5,883 nt of DNA, from IMG/VR virus record IMGVR_UViG_3300045988_069267, positions 1-5,883 of that record; one strand, written 5' to 3'. This DNA comes from a virus. A program made the position numbers and the translations under genes. Position 1 is the stretch's first letter, and each line of letters opens with the position of its first letter. Under the pieces are notes generated by a model that did not search any database, was not told where the DNA came from, and saw nothing but the letters and a program-made list of their open reading frames with translations. Shown here piece by piece: positions 1 to 5,883 of this stretch.

Positions 1-55
1 CTTGTTGTAGTAGTAGTTGTAGTAGTGTTGAAAGTGTTGAAAACTCGTTTTTTTA
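1..55. repeat. Terminal redundancy (assembly overlap of a circular genome). It is identical to 5829..5883.
   Basis: Base-by-base comparison shows that cttgttgtagtagtagttgtagtagtgttgaaagtgttgaaaactcgtttttttta occurs at both window ends. The offset is 5828 nt. Confidence 0.95.
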
Positions 56-192
56 ACGTTACTACGTTTATTTATTGTCTTTTTGCCTGTTGAAAACTTT
101 GTTGAAAACTTGTTGAATTGTTGAATGTTCGTCATTTTAACGAATTTCTTTGTGCAACTTGTTGTTGAAAACCTGTTGAAAGTGTTGAAAAC
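26..192. repeat. Iteron-like array with nine direct copies of the core TGTTGAA (mostly TGTTGAAAAC) in non-coding DNA.
   Basis: Copies start at 26, 35, 88, 100, 111, 119, 163, 174 and 183, all in the same orientation. A 21-nt direct repeat, tgttgaaagtgttgaaaactc, occurs at 26..46 and 174..194. An adjacent GTTGTAGTAGT tandem lies at 4..14 and 16..26. Confidence 0.85.
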
Positions 193-235
193 TCAAGTTT
201 TCCACATTCTCTTTTTTTTGTACTATTGTTTCTTT

Positions 236-268
236 GCGCGTGTGTGCACGTTTCGTGCGCGCGCGCGT
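236..268. other. Alternating purine-pyrimidine (CG/TG) tract that also forms an imperfect hairpin.
   Basis: The sequence is gcgcgtgtgtgcacg-ttt-cgtgcgcgcgcgcgt. Arms 236..250 and 254..268 pair over 15 positions if four G:T wobbles are allowed on the plus strand. The same positions are A:C mismatches on the minus strand. Confidence 0.6.
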
Positions 269-305
269 ATAGTGATCATAGACTGTTTGCTTTACTACAG
301 CGGCA

Positions 306-324
306 GCCCCCCGCGTAGGGGGGC
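306..324. other. GC-rich hairpin A (7-bp stem, 5-nt loop).
   Basis: The sequence is gcccccc-gcgta-ggggggc. The arms 306..312 and 318..324 are perfectly complementary. Confidence 0.8.
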
Positions 325-331
325 GTGACGC

Positions 332-366
332 AAGGGGGGGCGCAAACCAATTTTGCGCCCCCCCTT
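332..366. other. GC-rich hairpin B (perfect 15-bp stem, 5-nt loop).
   Basis: aagggggggcgcaaa (332..346) and tttgcgccccccctt (352..366) are exact reverse complements, with loop ccaat. There is no U-tract after the stem on the coding (minus) strand. Confidence 0.85.
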
Positions 367-444
367 CTATATATGATTATGTTTTGGCTGCCGTTTGTTT
401 GGTGCCCCTGTGTTGGGGAACTTTAGCTTTGCGCGGAGGGGCTT

Positions 445-1314
445 TTAATCTCCTCTGTATGCGTCGAATACGTCCAAGTTTGGCATAATCGGTACTTTTT
501 GGTTGTACTTTTTGTACTTTTCTCTTATGTCTTTGGCTGCTTTTCCAGCCTTTTTTGCTGCATCTTTGGCTGCATCTTTGGCTGCTTTTCCAGCTCCTGC
601 AAGACCTTTGCCTAGTTTGCTTGCCGCATAGGTGTAATCACTCGCTTGTTTTGCGCTTGAAGTTGCTAGTTCGCTTGCCGCTTGTTCCCAGTTCTTAGCT
701 GCTTTGAACTGCTTTATGCTTGCGCTTTGCTTTGACAGTTGATACCATTTGTCTGCTAGCTCTGCTGTGTTGTTGCCGTATTCGTACATTGCGCTCACAC
801 TTGCAGCCTGTGCACTTTGCTGGTTATAACGTTGGCTCCCAATGCTTGCAGACGCTCCGCTTGTTGATGCTGTTGCTCCGTTGGTCGCTGCCAGAATTGG
901 ATTGATGCCTGCTGCAATCATATCTTTTACGGTGTCCTGATAGGCTGTCCCACGCATTTCCTTCTGAAACGCTCGTTCTGCTGCTGCCTCTGCGCTGTTG
1001 TATTTTTTCGCGCTTGCTTGGCTTCCAGCGTTGGCAAGGTTACTCAGCAGTCCGCTTATCATTTGCAGTGCGTTTGCTGTGTTTACGCTGCTCTGATTTC
1101 CGAATGTTGTGATGCCTGTCGGTGTGCTGATTTGTGTTGAACCTATCTGTTGTGGTGCTGTTATGCTGCCGGTTGTGGTCTCGTTGCCTGTGCTGGTCTC
1201 GCTCCCTGATGCTTGGCTGTCCTTGGCGCTGCTCTGGTTGCTGCTCGTTATGATGCCCGTCAGTATGCTCAGTCCTTGCATGATGTATGGCATAAAGCCT
1301 AATAATGTTTCCAT
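445..1314 (-). CDS. VP2: Minor capsid / DNA pilot protein (VP2, functional analogue of phiX174 H).
   Basis: This is a 289-aa ORF directly downstream of VP1. The N-terminus is hydrophobic (METLLGFMPYIMQGLSILTGIIT). The segment AERAFQKEMRGTAYQDTVKDMIAAGINPILAA matches the Q..M..TAYQ....D..AAG(L/I)NP.L signature I recall from gokushovirus VP2 proteins. The middle is S/T/Q/A-rich and low-complexity, and the C-terminus is K/A-rich. Confidence 0.85.
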   Translation of the reverse strand: METLLGFMPYIMQGLSILTGIITSSNQSSAKDSQASGSETSTGNETTTGSITAPQQIGSTQISTPTGITTFGNQSSVNTANALQMISGLLSNLANAGSQASAKKYNSAEAAAERAFQKEMRGTAYQDTVKDMIAAGINPILAATNGATASTSGASASIGSQRYNQQSAQAASVSAMYEYGNNTAELADKWYQLSKQSASIKQFKAAKNWEQAASELATSSAKQASDYTYAASKLGKGLAGAGKAAKDAAKDAAKKAGKAAKDIREKYKKYNQKVPIMPNLDVFDAYRGD

Positions 1315-1315
1315 T

Positions 1316-1342
1316 CAAAAATAGCCCCGCTTTTGCGGGGCT
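1316..1342 (-). terminator. Rho-independent terminator or attenuator hairpin between VP1 and VP2.
   Basis: The minus strand reads AGCCCCGC-aaaa-GCGGGGCT followed by ATTTTTGA and then the VP2 ATG. The stem is 8 bp and GC-rich, the loop is 4 nt, and a T5 tract follows. Confidence 0.7.
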
Positions 1343-1352
1343 TCCTCCTTTC

Positions 1353-2999
1353 TTAGATTCTTTCGATTCCGGGAATGCTGTAGATAGGCATCTCGCGGTA
1401 CCAGTCTTCGTTGAAGTAGAAGTCACACAGGAACTGATGACTGATGCTGCTGGTTACTGCGATTGTACGGTCGATGTTTTCCTGTCCTTCCTGAATCCAT
1501 GCCGCCGAGAGTCGCGGCAGTTTGTTATAGTCGTCCGCATAGTGCCATGCGTCCAAACTGGTCTGATAGTTAGACCGCATTTCGCCGGTTACGTAAGATG
1601 GCTTGTATCGGTAGTCTGCCCATGCTTCTTGATAACCAAAGATTTCTTCATCTTCTGCCGTGCCCTGTGCATAGATTTCGCGGTTGTATACCGGCTGCTC
1701 ACCCAGTGCTGCCAGTCGTGGGTCGTAGTAGGTGAACCGTCCGCCACGCGTCCACTTGGTTGCCAGTCCCTGCTGGTAGCTGTGTTCCACTCTTACCACT
1801 GCCAGACCGATGATATAGCCGTATTCGGTCGCTGCATAGTCTACCATCTGCTTGCTGCATGTGGTCAGGCTGTATGCTGCTGTATTGCCCAGTGCCTGCC
1901 CGGTTTTCGGGTCTGTCTGGCTCGTCTGGACAACCTGATTTACATTGATTGCGATACGCTGACCGCCGATGTATTCAGGAATCTGTAGACGGCTGTCCGG
2001 ACTTGTCACGCCCCATGTGCCGGAAAGGAACTCGCGGTATCTCGTGCCGTTGCGTGCATCAGCTTCAAAAATGTGCTGCAAGGCAATTGCCATGCGCAAG
2101 TCTTGTATGCTGATTGCGTTTACATTGGTCAGGTCTGCGAACAAATAACCGCCGGCGCCTTCTTCGCCATCTTTTTCCCCTGTGAATTGCATTATTTTGG
2201 GGTCTCCTGCGTATGTCAACGACCCCGGCGTGTTTAAGCTCTTGCCTAGAATCATTTCCGGACCCCTGCCCGTTTCCAGACTTGGGATTGTTTCGCCGGT
2301 TGCAGTTCCCAGTCTAAGCGGTGCATTGCCCGTCAGGTTGATTTCCACAGGGTCATTTTTTAACGGCGAGGGGAGACAGGATGTGAAATAGTCGTGGAAC
2401 TTACTAGCCTTGGCCGGCTTTTGTGCGTAGAGTGTCGCTTCGTTTTCCGATGCGGTTGCTGTTGGGTAGTTTGTGTTTAATATTTCTGCTTTCGGGTTAC
2501 TGTTAGTTCCTGCTTCATCTGTTTTTTTGTAGCCCAACATTAACGGTGCTTCAAGATTTTCATCTCTGAACCACTCGTTGTAAATCATGGCATATGCGCG
2601 TGCTGGGAGTGCGTTCACTTTGAGTTCTTTCGCGATTCCGGTCGGCAGTCCGAAATAGTCCCCAATGCTGCCATTATTCAGGCCGTTGCTGCCGCCGATT
2701 TTGCAAGTCGGTGTGCTGTATTCTGTTTTTTCTGCCCAGTAGTTGGTATCGTTTTCGCCGAACATGTTCTCCCAGTGTTCCCACAGTAGACGGCACGGAA
2801 CAAAGAAGAAATAGGTGTCCATGTAGCAGTTATCCATCACCGGATAGATAGGTGTACTCATACGGATGAGACCGTTCAGGCGTATACGTGCGGTATCGCC
2901 CGGAAGTACCTCATCGCAGTAGATGGGCACTAAGTCGCCCTCGTTGATGGTCGTCAAGAGTTGATGGCTTCGGTCAAACTTGCTTCTCGGTCGTTCCAT
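1353..2999 (-). CDS. VP1: Major capsid protein (VP1, phiX174 F-protein family).
   Basis: This is the largest ORF. The N-terminus RSKFDRSHQLLTTINEGDLVPIYCDEVLPGDT is the classic microvirus capsid signature (FDLSH...G.L.PI...EVLPGD). The length is typical of gokushovirus VP1. The ORF-track start at 3008 is a GTG. I prefer the ATG at 2999 (MERPRSKFD...). Neither start has a clear Shine-Dalgarno sequence. Confidence 0.95.
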   Translation of the reverse strand: MERPRSKFDRSHQLLTTINEGDLVPIYCDEVLPGDTARIRLNGLIRMSTPIYPVMDNCYMDTYFFFVPCRLLWEHWENMFGENDTNYWAEKTEYSTPTCKIGGSNGLNNGSIGDYFGLPTGIAKELKVNALPARAYAMIYNEWFRDENLEAPLMLGYKKTDEAGTNSNPKAEILNTNYPTATASENEATLYAQKPAKASKFHDYFTSCLPSPLKNDPVEINLTGNAPLRLGTATGETIPSLETGRGPEMILGKSLNTPGSLTYAGDPKIMQFTGEKDGEEGAGGYLFADLTNVNAISIQDLRMAIALQHIFEADARNGTRYREFLSGTWGVTSPDSRLQIPEYIGGQRIAINVNQVVQTSQTDPKTGQALGNTAAYSLTTCSKQMVDYAATEYGYIIGLAVVRVEHSYQQGLATKWTRGGRFTYYDPRLAALGEQPVYNREIYAQGTAEDEEIFGYQEAWADYRYKPSYVTGEMRSNYQTSLDAWHYADDYNKLPRLSAAWIQEGQENIDRTIAVTSSISHQFLCDFYFNEDWYREMPIYSIPGIERI

Positions 3000-3024
3000 C
3001 CGTGGCACTTGCGCGAAATGGTTT

Positions 3025-3444
3025 TCACTGTTTCGGTTCGTTTTCCTTCACCTCCTCCTCTTTCTCTTCCTGCTTCGGCTGTTCGGTTTGCTGCATCTGT
3101 TTCAGCTGTTCCATTGTTTTGGCTGCAGCTTCGGCCTTTTCGTGCATCGTCATGATATCCTTCGGCAGATTTTCAAGCTCGGTGCCTTCGGTGTATACCA
3201 TGCTTTTTGCTTTGATGCTGGTGTCCCCAGCTTCCAGCCGTGCGATTGCGCTTGCAAGGTCGTAGCCCTCGCCGGCTCGCTGGATTTTTTCATATGTGTT
3301 TTCATCCGGCTGCTGGATGTAGTCGGTTGTGCCGTTCGGTCGCTTTACCGCTTTCCACGTTGGTTCTGTCTTGCTGCCTGGATTGTTTGTTACTCTCTCT
3401 GTCGGCAGACCGTAGTACCTTACCATTGCATCAGGATTTAACAT
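3025..3444 (-). CDS. Putative internal scaffolding protein (VP3-like). The function is tentative.
   Basis: This is a 139-aa ORF with AAGGAG (3457..3452) 7 nt upstream of the ATG. It lies immediately upstream of VP1. It has a highly acidic, Glu/Lys/Gln-rich C-terminal tail (QQTEQPKQEEKEEEVKENEPKQ). The segment VYTEGTELENLPKDIMTMHEKAEAAAKTMEQL loosely resembles the Y.D....P.D..A....A...F..L region I recall in gokushovirus VP3. Confidence 0.5.
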   Translation of the reverse strand: MLNPDAMVRYYGLPTERVTNNPGSKTEPTWKAVKRPNGTTDYIQQPDENTYEKIQRAGEGYDLASAIARLEAGDTSIKAKSMVYTEGTELENLPKDIMTMHEKAEAAAKTMEQLKQMQQTEQPKQEEKEEEVKENEPKQ

Positions 3445-3685
3445 TTGCCGTCTCCTTCAGGTCGATGAGCCGCGCGATGTGTTCCGGCATTGCTTCGCTC
3501 ATGTAGCCGGTTTCGGTGTCGAATTCGCCTAGCTCTACGAGCGAAATATCTTCAATTTCGTCGGGCTTGCTTTCGTTGGCCTTCCATCGTGCCGTTCGGA
3601 CTGCCTGTGCCCTGTTGTTCTGCAAGAACGGCTGCGAGTAGCCGTTGGTCAGTGCATCGTGGAACGAGTAGAATTTCAGTTTCAT
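3431..3685 (-). CDS. Small non-structural protein, VP5-like (analogue of phiX174 protein C). The function is tentative.
   Basis: This is an 84-aa ORF with AAGGAG (3697..3692) 6 nt upstream of the ATG. It overlaps the next gene by 14 nt, which suggests coupled translation. The pattern MKLKF.S.HD....GYSQPF...N.AQAVR...DISLVELGEFDTETG resembles my recollection of gokushovirus VP5, a protein of roughly this length. Confidence 0.55.
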   Translation of the reverse strand: MKLKFYSFHDALTNGYSQPFLQNNRAQAVRTARWKANESKPDEIEDISLVELGEFDTETGYMSEAMPEHIARLIDLKETANVKS

Positions 3686-3696
3686 GTTTTTCTCCT

Positions 3697-3813
3697 TTAC
3701 TCTTTGTCTTTGTTTGCATCCTTCAGTGCGTGGTAGATTTCGTCCAGCTTTTCAAGGATGTTCATCATCAGAGCAATTGCTTCCTTGACGTCCTTGACCT
3801 TAATCAGTGCCAT
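3697..3813 (-). CDS. Small hypothetical protein of 38 aa (MALIKVKDVKEAIALMMNILEKLDEIYHALKDANKDKE). The upstream in-frame ATG at 3885 would give 62 aa.
   Basis: The purine-rich sequence AAAGGGGG (3828..3821) lies 7 nt upstream of the ATG at 3813. The longer form (3697..3885) has no Shine-Dalgarno sequence but adds a very basic N-terminus (MYGRRYHGAVSGCKRHKPKKGGDL). Its stop codon overlaps the ribosome-binding region of the next gene. The start codon is unresolved. Confidence 0.4.
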   Translation of the reverse strand: MALIKVKDVKEAIALMMNILEKLDEIYHALKDANKDKE

Positions 3814-3963
3814 TAAGTCGCCCCCTTTCTTTGGTTTGTGTCGCTTACAGCCGGATACCGCCCCGTGATACCTTCGGCCGTACATTGATGTTTTTTACCC
3901 GCTTTGCCGTCTGGGTAAATCGTTTCTGGTCTCCTCGACCCGCTCCGCTTCTGTGTGCTATTT

Positions 3964-4344
3964 TTATACCCCCTTCCTATATTTGTTTGTCCGTACGTCT
4001 ATATGTACAAAATTAGTATATCGGATTATTCCGCCTTTGTCAAGTATGCTATCTGCATATTCTGCGATTTCTTTTGAGTTGTGCCCTTTTACTACGATAT
4101 CGGCGGCCATTCCTTTGCAATGGAAGGATGCTTTTGCTCCGTTTACTTTTCTGTTATGCTTTACGGTTCTGAAGCCGCTGTTGATGATTACCGGTGCGCC
4201 AAAGTGATTTCGGATTTTTTCTAGTGTTTCTATTAGTTGGCTATCGATTAGGATATTGTCTGTTCCGTCTTTGCAAGCAAATTCGTTTGCCTTGAAGTGT
4301 TCGGATACTTTTGTATTGTCCTCTTTGCTGTATGCCATTAACAT
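3964..4344 (-). CDS. Zinc D,D- or L,D-peptidase of the M15 / LAS fold (Peptidase_M15_3-like). It is a putative peptidoglycan hydrolase or endolysin.
   Basis: This is a 126-aa ORF. HFKANEFACKDG matches the F..EF.C family N-terminal motif. SGFRTVKHNRKVNGAKASFHCKGMAADI matches SG.R....N...G....S.H..G.A.D, with the H-x6-D zinc ligands. FVHIDVR supplies the third ligand, H.D. No signal peptide, transmembrane segment or cell-wall-binding domain is visible. Confidence 0.85.
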   Translation of the reverse strand: MLMAYSKEDNTKVSEHFKANEFACKDGTDNILIDSQLIETLEKIRNHFGAPVIINSGFRTVKHNRKVNGAKASFHCKGMAADIVVKGHNSKEIAEYADSILDKGGIIRYTNFVHIDVRTNKYRKGV

Positions 4345-4366
4345 TGTTCGTCAGCCATCCTTTTTG

Positions 4367-4573
4367 TTATTTTTGGAATGCCCAAATTCCCTCTGCTGGT
4401 ACTTCCCAACTTTTGTAGTTGTTCTCTTCATCCCAACAATAGAGATATTCTGTGTAAGCTTTTAGCGTTTCGTCCCATTCTGTTCTTAGTTCGTATTCGC
4501 ATTTTCCGCTATACACTTTTCCTTCATCGTACAGTTTTTGGATTGTTTTTTTACTTAATCTTGGTTTTCTCAT
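4367..4573 (-). CDS. Hypothetical protein of 68 aa, the first gene after the strong promoter.
   Basis: AAGGAAGG (4589..4582) lies 8 nt upstream of the ATG at 4573. The ORF-track start at 4582 is a GTG that sits inside this Shine-Dalgarno sequence, so I reject it. The N-terminus is basic (MRKPRLSKKTIQK) and the C-terminal half is acidic and rich in Trp and Tyr. I recognise no family. Confidence 0.6.
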   Translation of the reverse strand: MRKPRLSKKTIQKLYDEGKVYSGKCEYELRTEWDETLKAYTEYLYCWDEENNYKSWEVPAEGIWAFQK

Positions 4574-4600
4574 TTTGAGCACCTTCCTTTCTTTGATTAT

Positions 4601-4628
4601 ATTATACCACTTTTTTTAAATTTGTCAA
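4601..4628 (-). promoter_or_regulatory. Near-consensus sigma70/sigmaA promoter with an extended -10 element.
   Basis: The minus strand reads TTGACA (4628..4623), then a 16-nt spacer aatttaaaaaaagTGg, then TATAAT (4606..4601). The TGn extended -10 is present. A second overlapping TATAAT lies at 4601..4596. An AT-rich, UP-like tract lies upstream (4629..4650). The ribosome-binding site and the ATG at 4573 lie downstream. Confidence 0.75.
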
Positions 4629-4652
4629 TACTTTTAATTGATATATCACTTT

Positions 4653-4749
4653 GGAGCTTTGCTCCTTTGTTTTGATGGCGCTTTAGCGCCCTGTCGTGTG
4701 GAGCGCACGCGGAACTCGACTTAATGTTTTCGTGATTTCACGAAAACAT
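4653..4749. repeat. Cluster of three palindromes or hairpins between the rep stop codon and the promoter.
   Basis: The three are ggagc-ttt-gctcc (4653..4665), ggcgc-ttta-gcgcc (4677..4690) and the perfect 12-nt arms atgttttcgtga / tcacgaaaacat (4724..4735 and 4738..4749). A degenerate direct copy, atgttttcg-g-ttcacg, lies at 4772..4787 inside the rep 3' end. Confidence 0.8.
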
Positions 4750-4769
4750 CATTTTTAGCGCTGTGCGCG

Positions 4770-5774
4770 TCATGTTTTCGGTTCACGCCATTTTTGCTTT
4801 AGCTTGTCTTTTTCTTTTTGAATGTTGAGATAGGTTTCATAATCTACGCTTGTGCTTTGTTCGAGATTGTTTAAACTTTGTATTGCACTGCGTCTGCGTC
4901 TGGCTCTTACCTCTCTCAGCTCGTCAGAATGTGCCTTAAAATAGCTTTCTGTGTCTTGGCTGGTATCCTTATCTAGAATCTTATCAAAATAGCGTGGCGG
5001 CCTTTTCTCGCGGCCTCCTGCACAGATGATGCTATCTGTTTTTAAGATTTCATCTTTGTGTTCGTTCAGGTACTTTTCGCCGATACCTTTTGACATGATC
5101 CTGAACTCAGGCTCTCTGCCTTCCATCCAGTATTTTGCTGCTTGTTCTGCACCTATGGCTTTTTTGTTGACGTACTGCGCCACATATGCAAAGCTGCCCG
5201 GCTGTGCTGGTGAAAAGTCTATCATGCCTTTGCCCCAGATTTTTTCCAACCATTCGCTTTTAAAATAGCTGTTGCCTTTTTGGTTTTTGTACCATTGCGC
5301 ATCCGGTGGTTTTAGTCCAAATACTATTGCATGATAGTGTGGTCTTTTTGTTCTGTCGCCGTATTCGGCCGCTAGGAAATATTTTATTGGTTTCTTGTAT
5401 GCTTTCCGTAGCCGTTTTATAAACAGCTGTACGTCTCGCTTATTCACTGTCTGGCTTTGAATGCTTCTGTAGCCTTTGATAATCTCTCCGTATGGGATGT
5501 GTTCGTCGTCATAAGTCAGTGTCAGAAAAATCACATCGTCCCACTCTTTTGCTTCCAGTTCTATTCTTGTTGCCCATTGGTCTGCTATCTGTTTTCGGCA
5601 ATATTCGCATTTACCGCATGGTAACAGTGCGAATTTTCCTTTTTTTACTCCGTCCATGATGTTCATTTGCAGTCCTTGCTTTGATAGGTTTTCCAGACTT
5701 CCCCATAGCTGCGGTTTCTTCGTGTCCATCTGGAATACTAATGGTTTTGTACATGGCATTTTTGTTACTGGCAC
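4770..5774 (-). CDS. VP4: Rolling-circle replication initiation protein (VP4, phiX174 A-protein superfamily, HUH endonuclease).
   Basis: This is a 334-aa ORF. It shows motif I FLTLTY, motif II RPHYHAIVF (the HUH motif) and motif III YVAQYVNKK. Motif III is a double-Tyr active site, almost the same as the phiX174 A sequence YVAKYVNKK as I recall it. A Cys cluster LPCGKCEYCR is also present. The track start at 5774 is a GTG with AAGGAAG (5784..5778) just upstream. The ATG at 5759 (MPCTKPL...) is an alternative start. Confidence 0.93.
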   Translation of the reverse strand: MPVTKMPCTKPLVFQMDTKKPQLWGSLENLSKQGLQMNIMDGVKKGKFALLPCGKCEYCRKQIADQWATRIELEAKEWDDVIFLTLTYDDEHIPYGEIIKGYRSIQSQTVNKRDVQLFIKRLRKAYKKPIKYFLAAEYGDRTKRPHYHAIVFGLKPPDAQWYKNQKGNSYFKSEWLEKIWGKGMIDFSPAQPGSFAYVAQYVNKKAIGAEQAAKYWMEGREPEFRIMSKGIGEKYLNEHKDEILKTDSIICAGGREKRPPRYFDKILDKDTSQDTESYFKAHSDELREVRARRRRSAIQSLNNLEQSTSVDYETYLNIQKEKDKLKQKWREPKT

Positions 5775-5828
5775 AAGCTTCCTTGTCTATCTTGTGCCAG
5801 TTGACACCTCGCTTTCTTTATATATTAA

Positions 5829-5883
5829 CTTGTTGTAGTAGTAGTTGTAGTAGTGTTGAAAGTGTTGAAAACTCGTTTTTTTA
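5829..5883. repeat. Second copy of the terminal redundancy, identical to 1..55.
   Basis: Exact 55/55 match to 1..55. The window ends inside the repeat, so this is wrap-around of a circle rather than a biological terminal repeat. Confidence 0.95.

Follow-up and report, generated by a model that had tools for sequence, protein, structure and literature searches.

The stretch of DNA analysed here, referred to as the window, comprises the 5,883 nucleotides (nt) of the IMG/VR record IMGVR_UViG_3300045988_069267 and is the complete genome of a gokushovirus (Gokushovirinae, Microviridae) from the human gut, with every gene located on the minus strand. The region of interest is an AT-rich cassette that associates a promoter, a small open reading frame (ORF) of 68 amino acids (aa) and a gene for a peptidase of the M15_3 family, situated between the replication gene Rep and the structural genes. 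For comparison, 36 related loci were collected from GenBank, IMG/VR, ENA, Logan and GTDB, and these split into two deep clades, W, to which the window belongs, and X. The cassette is very probably an exchangeable promoter-proximal peptidase module, the low guanine plus cytosine (GC) content of which is not the signature of a donor. From the Rep side towards the structural genes, the locus consists of the following features:

4636-4772, minus strand: GC-rich hairpin cluster lying between the Rep stop codon and the promoter and forming the right part of the block shared between clades (recognized by folding as single-stranded DNA)
4628-4601, minus strand: consensus sigma-70 promoter TTGACA-16 nt-TG-n-TATAAT, followed by the ribosome-binding site (RBS) AGGAAGGTG and the ATG of the 68-aa ORF
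4367-4573, minus strand: 68-aa ORF, in a variable slot of the promoter/peptidase interval
3964-4344, minus strand: M15_3 peptidase of 126 aa, 'allele B' (Pfam PF08291, PHROG 894)
3955-3973, minus strand: left junction motif GGGGGTATAAAAATAGCAC, made of the terminal codons of the peptidase, its stop codon and ATRGCAC, where the cassette homology with clade X ends
3826-3954, no strand assigned: GC-rich, clade W-specific spacer that separates the two motif copies and begins the high-GC domain
3807-3825, minus strand: second copy of the junction motif, GGGGGCGACTTAATGGCAC, with the RBS and start codon of a 38-aa ORF (found by motif search)
3697-3813, minus strand: small ORF of 38 aa, MALIKVKDVKEAIALMMNILEKLDEIYHALKDANKDKE (MALIKVKDVKEAI...), corresponding to the last 38 codons (from Met25) of a listed 62-aa ORF

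Within clade W, Rep is 94-97% identical to its counterpart in the window, and the clade X genomes share with the window about 40% identity in VP1 and 35-42% in Rep. The nearest GenBank records, Human gut gokushovirus KX513876 and Gokushovirinae sp. MT121961, which match 78% of the window at 86-88% identity, keep about this level all round the circle and lose it only at 3988-4569 and 3977-4631, respectively; their peptidase is about 50% identical to that of the window in protein. Similarly, the sliding identity with five clade W genomes collapses solely from about 3950 to about 4750. Relatives with a Rep 94-97% identical carry peptidases at just 47-61% identity, e.g., 47% in L036 and 61% in L037, and the clade W alleles fall, with respect to the window, into at least three identity classes of about 47-52%, 61% and 87-92%. 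The contig L030 displays 93.2% DNA identity to positions 3955-4745 over 791 nt (91.6% in the peptidase, 95.1% in the 68-aa ORF, 97.1% in the promoter and intergenic parts), while its VP1 is 48% identical. Three complete clade X genomes (L032, L033 and L035) share the same block at 75-79%, with a VP1 39-42% and a Rep 36-39% identical, and L034, also of clade X, shares the peptidase gene (3962-4344) at 79%; the clade X comparisons all end on the left at 3955-3962.

Pairs of genomes taken within clade W are 77-86% identical in VP1, 91-98% in Rep and 42-92% in the peptidase, and the corresponding values for pairs taken between the clades are 39-43%, 35-42% and 43-88%. Across 23 genomes, the Spearman correlation of the identities reaches 0.85 for VP1 and Rep, against 0.26 for VP1 and the peptidase. 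A neighbour-joining (NJ) tree unites, with a bootstrap support of 100/100, the 126-aa peptidases found in clade W (the window, L027, L028/29, L031 and L004a) with their counterparts in L030 and L032-L035, and this mixed group of both clades is nested among the clade X peptidases. The incongruence of the VP1 and Rep trees that the preliminary description had envisaged is not observed, both trees giving the same clades with co-varying identities; it is the peptidase that departs from them. The cassette of L027 and L028/L029 is 90-91% identical in DNA, and L031 possesses the same peptidase allele (89% in DNA) without the 68-aa ORF. Since L027, L028 and L029 are independent assemblies, collinear across both junctions, the window is not a chimera. 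In a single metagenome, one virus of each clade was recovered with a cassette 97-99% identical over the overlapping ends. The corresponding record L004 (IMGVR_UViG_3300045988_004182, 10,711 nt) is not a dimer, as was considered, but consists of two genomes, one of clade W at positions 1-5470 and one of clade X identical to L022, which the assembler fused via their nearly identical peptidase cassette; its first half was used with caution.

These sequence comparisons indicate that the cassette is horizontally exchanged between distant gokushovirus lineages. In this respect, the horizontal acquisition suggested by the preliminary description stands as an exchange, recognized from comparative evidence and not from composition, but it does not stand as an event recent to this genome, since L027, L028/L029 and L031 share the same peptidase allele. 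Nor does the segment 3964-4660 behave as an indel relative to close relatives: an allelic replacement is found instead, every relative filling the slot with some M15 peptidase. Because the 126-aa peptidase group of the window is nested in the diversity of clade X, the transfer likely proceeded from clade X to clade W, at a time when the window, L027 and L028 had not yet separated.

Both edges of the cassette coincide with sequence conserved across the clades. On the left, AAAGGGGGTRTAA..ATGGCAC, comprising the last codons (…KYRKGV) and the stop codon of the peptidase, is invariant in both clades and with both peptidase alleles, and the junction motif occurs in 2 copies in the window against 0.01 expected. 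In clade X, the ATGGCAC of the first copy is the start of a 34-40-aa ORF. The spacer 3826-3954 is a feature of clade W, whichever of the two peptidase alleles is carried, and is absent in clade X; a hairpin TTTACCC/GGGTAAA lies at 3894-3919 in this GC-rich spacer region. According to the proposed mechanism, the region would represent a promoter-proximal accessory or lysis module, in which the promoter is followed by the 68-aa protein and then by the M15_3 peptidase, and the segment from about 3955 to about 4765 would constitute an exchangeable cassette flanked by sequences common to very divergent gokushoviruses, i.e., on the left the final ~35 nt of the peptidase gene together with GGGGG..ATGGCAC, and on the right the promoter/RBS head together with the hairpin region. 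Upon co-infection, homologous recombination at these flanks would replace the peptidase allele, and the small upstream ORF would be replaced independently.

A cassette inherited vertically and evolving fast, devoid of any history of exchange and with a GC step of purely selective or mutational origin, would agree with the lineage-wide character of the compositional contrast described below and with the often quick evolution of lysis and host-interaction genes. However, a DNA identity of 93% together with a VP1 48% identical is impossible by fast divergence, and neither the abrupt loss of identity at one and the same motif in four genomes nor the 100/100 bootstrap of the mixed-clade peptidase group are explained in this way, so that this possibility is hardly tenable.

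With respect to base composition, the preliminary description had depicted a sharply bounded AT-rich island, closed at 4660, with a shift of about 20 percentage points. The seven hand counts on which it relied (36, 34, 34, 18, 23, 19 and 18 G+C out of 60) are exact, the GC content of Rep is as it stated (42.5%, equivalent to 25.5/60), and the drop does occur at the peptidase stop codon, the ORF ending at 3964 and the likelihood breakpoint falling at 3958. The best two-segment partition of the circle (breakpoint 3958, 2-log-likelihood interval 3940-4000, log-likelihood ratio 37) distinguishes two domains:

236-3958, no strand assigned: high-GC domain (50.8%), containing VP2, VP1, the VP3-like ORF, VP5 and the 38-aa ORF
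3959-5883 and on into 1-235, no strand assigned: low-GC domain (39.2%), containing the cassette, the hairpins, Rep and a non-coding region with iterated motifs

The supposed island is open on the right, as the low-GC domain comprises Rep and the non-coding region as well and stops only at about 235, and the sustained shift measured amounts to 12-14 points. With 36.8% GC, the cassette itself (3959-4660) does not differ from the remaining low-GC domain (40.4%, p=0.10), and its difference from Rep (42.5%) is weak (p=0.017); on these values a three-segment partition setting the cassette apart from Rep was dropped. For flanks of 60-300 nt, the step near 3960 ranks from 26th to 412th in the genome and is equalled in 79-99% of block shuffles, which leads to the rejection of a sharp 20-point step as a statistical claim. 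The step is significant only with flanks of 500-700 nt and, at h=700, becomes the largest of the genome with 14 points, matched by 0 of 300 block shuffles, so that the long-range change-point was retained. Of the sharp bounds, the right edge is real, since a change of -43 points at 4652, the largest of the genome at the 60-nt scale, marks the passage from the AT-rich promoter to the GC-rich hairpin cluster, but no return to the backbone composition follows. For flanks of 100-300 nt, the largest GC step occurs at 235, where the AT-rich iterated-motif block meets GC-rich hairpins. The intergenic segment 3886-3963 contains 50% GC.

The contrast also concerns codon usage. The peptidase (39.6% GC) has a GC content at third codon positions (GC3) of 0.41 and Rep a GC3 of 0.43, and the 68-aa ORF contains 36.6% GC; the genes of the high-GC domain exhibit GC3 values of 0.46-0.68 with a preference for C-ending codons of F, Y and H. 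Relative to Rep and to the two cassette genes, the structural genes of the window favour TTC, TAC, CAC and CAG and avoid A-ending codons.

The same contrast is widespread among the relatives. VP1 is GC-richer than Rep in 34 of the 34 genomes possessing both genes, in both clades, the difference averaging 8.4 points for clade W and 5.3 points for clade X (14 and 7.7 points, respectively, at third codon positions). The peptidase, whatever its allele, differs from Rep by -0.8 ± 1.9 points in clade W and by -0.7 ± 2.2 points in clade X. As VP1 exceeds Rep everywhere and the peptidase equals Rep, the composition of the cassette corresponds to a lineage-wide contrast between structural and non-structural DNA; a low GC content is usual in the non-structural half of such genomes and does not denote foreign DNA, and the cassette is not distinct from all native genes, as a compositionally foreign genomic island would be. 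The non-structural DNA (Rep, peptidase, small ORFs and non-coding parts) lies near 42% GC, and the capsid-module genes are 5-10 points richer, mainly at third positions. Codon selection linked to expression, acting on the highly expressed structural genes, is the preferred candidate and the likely cause of this contrast. From a methodological point of view, the GC cue found the right place for the wrong reason, because the intragenomic GC contrast of these viruses follows the gene class and not ancestry.

The two-domain partition (50.8% vs. 39.2%, with breakpoints at 235 and 3958) could also be taken, as the preliminary description proposed, for the trace of a recombinant genome in which a GC-richer structural module and a GC-poorer replication/accessory module derive from different ancestors; clade W shows the more marked contrast (8.4 points, against 5.3 in clade X), and the low-GC segments 87-190 and 3955-4765 have DNA relatives in clade X where the structural genes have none. 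Such an origin is nevertheless unlikely: the VP1 and Rep identities co-vary (rho 0.85, 23 genomes), both trees recover the same clades, Rep itself is 35-42% identical to its clade X counterparts, the GC contrast exists in 34/34 genomes of both clades, and it resides mostly at third positions with codon preferences typical of an expression-linked bias. An ancient recombination of modules might have taken place on the stem of the clade.

Another explanation of the low GC content is a recent gain of the cassette from outside the Microviridae, from a bacterial host or a tailed phage whose composition it would have retained. A bacterial or prophage source with an affinity to Faecalibacterium was indeed proposed for the M15_3 genes of gut Gokushovirinae (Roux et al. 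2012, PMC3394797), the nearest matches outside microviruses are Faecalibacterium phage endolysins of about 48% identity, and the cassette is the most AT-rich coding stretch of the window. This 48% is, however, as close as any tailed-phage match comes, and the best 120 of 634 homologues (63-92% identity) occur mostly on contigs of microvirus size or shorter, with no source name among them pointing beyond microviruses. Furthermore, the peptidase has the GC content of Rep across 34 genomes and its allele also occurs in L027, L028/L029 and L031, so that any entry from outside would be old and predate this genome. A recent gain of this kind is very improbable, and the reading as a module exchanged among gokushoviruses is preferred.

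The promoter at 4628-4601 is the only 12/12 consensus match of the genome. Promoter, RBS and ATG are conserved in clades W and X, even before a different ORF (L033), and L001, which carries the other peptidase allele, shares 4570-4632; a scan of IMG/VR for the exact promoter-RBS head returned one further genome only, L036. The statement that the cassette has its own promoter is thus correct as to the promoter, which is not private since relatives conserve it with any allele. No terminator-like site was detected on the coding strand between the promoter and 1342-1323. Because the promoter is independent of the allele and no terminator-like site precedes 1342-1323, transcription would read through into the structural genes, and the promoter probably heads the whole structural transcription unit, with the cassette in a promoter-proximal position. 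In this respect, the cassette differs from a 'moron', which is defined by its own promoter and terminator: its promoter is shared and no terminator-like site follows the peptidase on the minus strand, and presence or absence between conserved neighbours is seen for the 68-aa ORF (L031, L004a) but not for the peptidase.

The hairpin cluster 4636-4772, folded as single-stranded DNA, reaches -29.5 kcal/mol (z = -5.3; 0 of 200 shuffles as stable), and its sequences ACGCGCACAGCGCT and GGCGCTAAAGCGCC are conserved in both clades; it may function as the Rep terminator and/or as a complementary-strand origin. The strongest terminator-like hairpin of the genome, AGCCCCGC AAAA GCGGGGCT followed by a T run, is located at 1323-1342 on the minus strand, in the interval between the VP1 stop and the VP2 start. 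A second promoter-like site, TTGACA-17-TATACT (11/12), occurs at 4015-4043 on the minus strand within the peptidase gene, over the LDKGGIIRYT codons, and may be either fortuitous or an internal promoter of the genes further downstream.

The peptidase matches the Pfam profile PF08291 (M15_3) with 94.3 bits for a cut-off of 23.2 (residues 16-116 of 126, profile positions 2-108 of 108), and PHROG 894, 'endolysin', at 1.7e-40. The residues H75-x6-D82 and H114-x-D116 are invariant across 16 homologues, the divergent allele included. When built into a profile, these homologues match 1LBU, a zinc D-Ala-D-Ala carboxypeptidase, with an E-value of 1.3e-7 in an alignment that spans H-x6-D; phmmer, run with the single peptidase sequence on the Protein Data Bank (PDB), returned nothing, and 1LBU was reached by the profile alone. 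Both the score and the zinc-ligand motif place the enzyme in M15_3, i.e., among the LAS-type zinc peptidases of clan Peptidase_MD. The peptidase is a probable lysis enzyme, a LAS-type peptidoglycan peptidase as judged from these similarities, and would most likely cut the peptide stems of peptidoglycan for the release of the progeny.

Tailed double-stranded DNA phages possess mosaic lysis cassettes that are exchanged at conserved boundary sequences. The window resembles them by a fixed slot with alternative alleles, by a peptidoglycan hydrolase and by short flanks that may serve as recombination sites; it differs from them by its 5.8-kb single-stranded DNA genome, by a promoter shared with downstream structural genes, and by the lack of a holin, a spanin and a signal sequence. 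Compared with the canonical holin-endolysin cassette, the hydrolase is present, and the adjacent holin and the export signal of the endolysin are missing. The N-terminus of the peptidase, MLMAYSKEDNTKVSEHF, is hydrophilic and was not flagged in the hydropathy scan, which indicates that no signal peptide or signal-anchor-release domain is present, and a 19-residue hydropathy peak reaching 1.5 was seen, among the coding-strand ORFs of 25 aa or more, only in the N-terminus of VP2.

Several points weigh against the interpretation of the locus as an exchanged lysis module of native composition. The scan of the coding-strand ORFs (25 aa or more) revealed neither a holin nor a signal peptide or other hydrophobic segment to accompany the peptidase, whose role in lysis is a predicted one. 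Translational selection would be a candidate cause of the GC contrast. The cassette of the window is AT-richer than the average (39.6% for the peptidase vs. a mean of 42%, and 36.6% for the 68-aa ORF) and comes nearer to the backbone composition of L030 (VP1 44.7%), and the composition of a donor may have contributed to it to a minor extent. The direction of transfer relies on a midpoint-rooted NJ tree, and the two cases of highest identity rest on metagenome assemblies, L030 being a single short Logan contig and L004 an assembly join; the mosaic pattern is supported independently of both by L032, L033 and L035.

A speculative extension, to which a low probability is assigned, is that the slot houses a portable, holin-independent lysis unit, in which the signal-less peptidase would act inside the cell on wall precursors (e.g., UDP-MurNAc-pentapeptide or the stems of lipid II) and provoke lysis via blocked wall synthesis, the 68-aa protein being a partner or a counter-defence factor and the linker motifs allowing genera to swap the unit with a change of host. 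It is compatible with the data because no holin or export signal occurs, the catalytic motif is intact and the exchange is repeated. Protein E of phage phiX174, an overprinted membrane protein that inhibits MraY, achieves lysis with a single gene by blocking wall synthesis. Like phiX174, the window would assume a microvirus lysis function without a holin; unlike it, the window has a free-standing soluble zinc peptidase in its own frame, and the hydropathy scan of the coding strand revealed no E-like ORF. If true, a precursor-cleaving peptidase would represent the enzymatic counterpart of the 'protein antibiotic' E. In any case, the locus offers a concrete handle on the lysis of gokushovirus hosts and on host range in the gut.

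The 68-aa ORF (4367-4573) given in the preliminary description is borne out by homologues that begin at the same Met. Only 11 homologous clusters were found among 5.8 billion proteins, all the traced ones being located on microvirus contigs, and 20 residues are invariant. The AlphaFold2 model, with a predicted local distance difference test score (pLDDT) of 93, corresponds to a soluble protein of alpha/beta fold; a Foldseek search with this model returned no significant PDB match, and the best match in BFVD is another uncharacterised Microviridae protein (template-modelling (TM) score 0.77). A Tad2 anti-Thoeris sponge was considered and set aside (TM about 0.5, E about 0.3) as a lead and not as evidence. 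The slot is variable: L031 and L004a lack the ORF, and L001 and L033 have other ORFs in its place. It is present with allele B (the window and L027-L029) as well as with divergent alleles (L024, L026 and L036), and is absent from L031, L004a, L001, L002 and L037; this distribution shows an assortment independent of the peptidase allele.

At the place of the 38-aa ORF, gene calls of 34-43 aa occur in L027-L035, always directly downstream of the peptidase. This small ORF is 49-73% identical across clades in which tblastn no longer detects VP3 and VP5, and it may functionally be part of the lysis module.

Part of this picture was already published. Roux et al. (2012, PLoS One, PMC3394797) described M15_3 genes in human-gut Gokushovirinae and Alpavirinae as horizontally acquired and as possible endolysins, with a transfer between microviruses and bacteria or prophages, and found no direct transfer from microvirus to microvirus. 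The window shares with these genes the Pfam family, the habitat and the proposed role, and GenBank relatives such as KX513876 already annotate a 'peptidase M15' at the position of its peptidase; what the window adds is evidence that gokushovirus lineages exchange the peptidase with one another, at defined junctions. In mBio, Kirchberger, Martinez and Ochman (2022, PMC9239249) reported a peptidase region of about 700 nt in MG945328 and MG945336 that is 72% identical in nucleotides across families, interpreted it as an occasional recombination, exchange beyond the genus level being rare, and described microviruses as genetically isolated and almost free of mosaicism. The window likewise contains a peptidase block of about 700-800 nt with raised nucleotide identity between otherwise very divergent microviruses. 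Its identity is up to 93%, or 97-99% over the overlapping ends of the co-occurring pair, against 72% in their case, and here several alleles occur in one clade of near-identical Rep, with an independently assorting small ORF and junction motifs. Following the acquisition of the peptidase and a single exchange of about 700 nt reported in these two studies, the window clearly represents a further and much sharper example. With one allele up to 93% identical in DNA across clades and a variable small ORF upstream of the peptidase, the locus clearly contradicts, at one defined site, the isolation of microviruses.

The rest of the genome conforms to the Gokushovirinae, with VP1, VP2, VP4 and VP5 on a circle within the range of about 4.5-6 kb. 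Pfam and PHROG profiles identify the usual gene set of the subfamily (Phage_F VP1, Phage_ORF5, REP_ORF2-G2P, pilot protein and M15_3 peptidase), and the genes beyond the cassette are as follows:

445-1314, minus strand: VP2 pilot protein (Pfam and PHROG searches)
1353-3008, minus strand: VP1 capsid protein (Phage_F, 497 bits)
3025-3444, minus strand: ORF of 139 aa at the VP3 position (assigned by genome position)
3431-3685, minus strand: VP5 (Phage_ORF5)
4770-5774, minus strand: Rep/VP4 (REP_ORF2-G2P)

The 139-aa ORF has no match in Pfam or PHROG (Chlamy_scaf was not detected) and is kept at 72-93% identity inside the clade. Positions 1-55 of the window are 100% identical to positions 5829-5883 over 55 nt, and relatives carry one copy; this identity is the terminal redundancy of a circular assembly, so that the true circle measures about 5828 nt and a genuine 51-nt tandem repeat at coordinate 1 was rejected. 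A scan of bacterial genomes with VP1 returned solely a 5.7-kb viral contig in a Bacteroides metagenome-assembled genome (MAG), which is no usable evidence for a host: this contig, L037 (CAVKUS010000079.1, 5739 nt), is a complete clade W virus binned in the MAG 'Bacteroides sp. CAG:545', and binning is not host evidence. Even towards the closest relatives, DNA similarity is absent at 2140-2319 in VP1, presumably the hypervariable surface-loop region, and at 234-529, over the C-terminus of VP2 and non-coding DNA.

The AT-rich non-coding block formed by 5775-5883 and 1-235, upstream of Rep on the minus strand, is rich in iterated GTTTTCAACA / TTTCAACA motifs; it is better conserved between clade W genomes (90-97% identity) than the coding DNA (about 85%) and may correspond to an origin or to Rep-binding iterons. 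Its segment 87-190 is 82-89% identical to a clade X segment located just upstream of the peptidase cassette. Gene callers put a 58-aa ORF on this block, and a match to the Rfam U4 small nuclear RNA at 81-164 on the plus strand (23.9 bits vs. a gathering threshold of 46) is almost certainly due to chance. Adjoining the GC step at 235, the segment 247-366 contains perfect GC-rich hairpins, AAGGGGGGGCGCAAA/TTTGCGCCCCCCCTT at 332-366 and GCCCCCC/GGGGGGC at 306-324, together with a (CG)n palindrome at 254-267. Finally, strand asymmetry is strong throughout the genome, the AT skew of the plus strand ranging from -0.03 to -0.64 and mostly from -0.3 to -0.6, and the third codon positions of the coding strand are rich in A (A3 0.31-0.44) and poor in T (T3 0.13-0.14).

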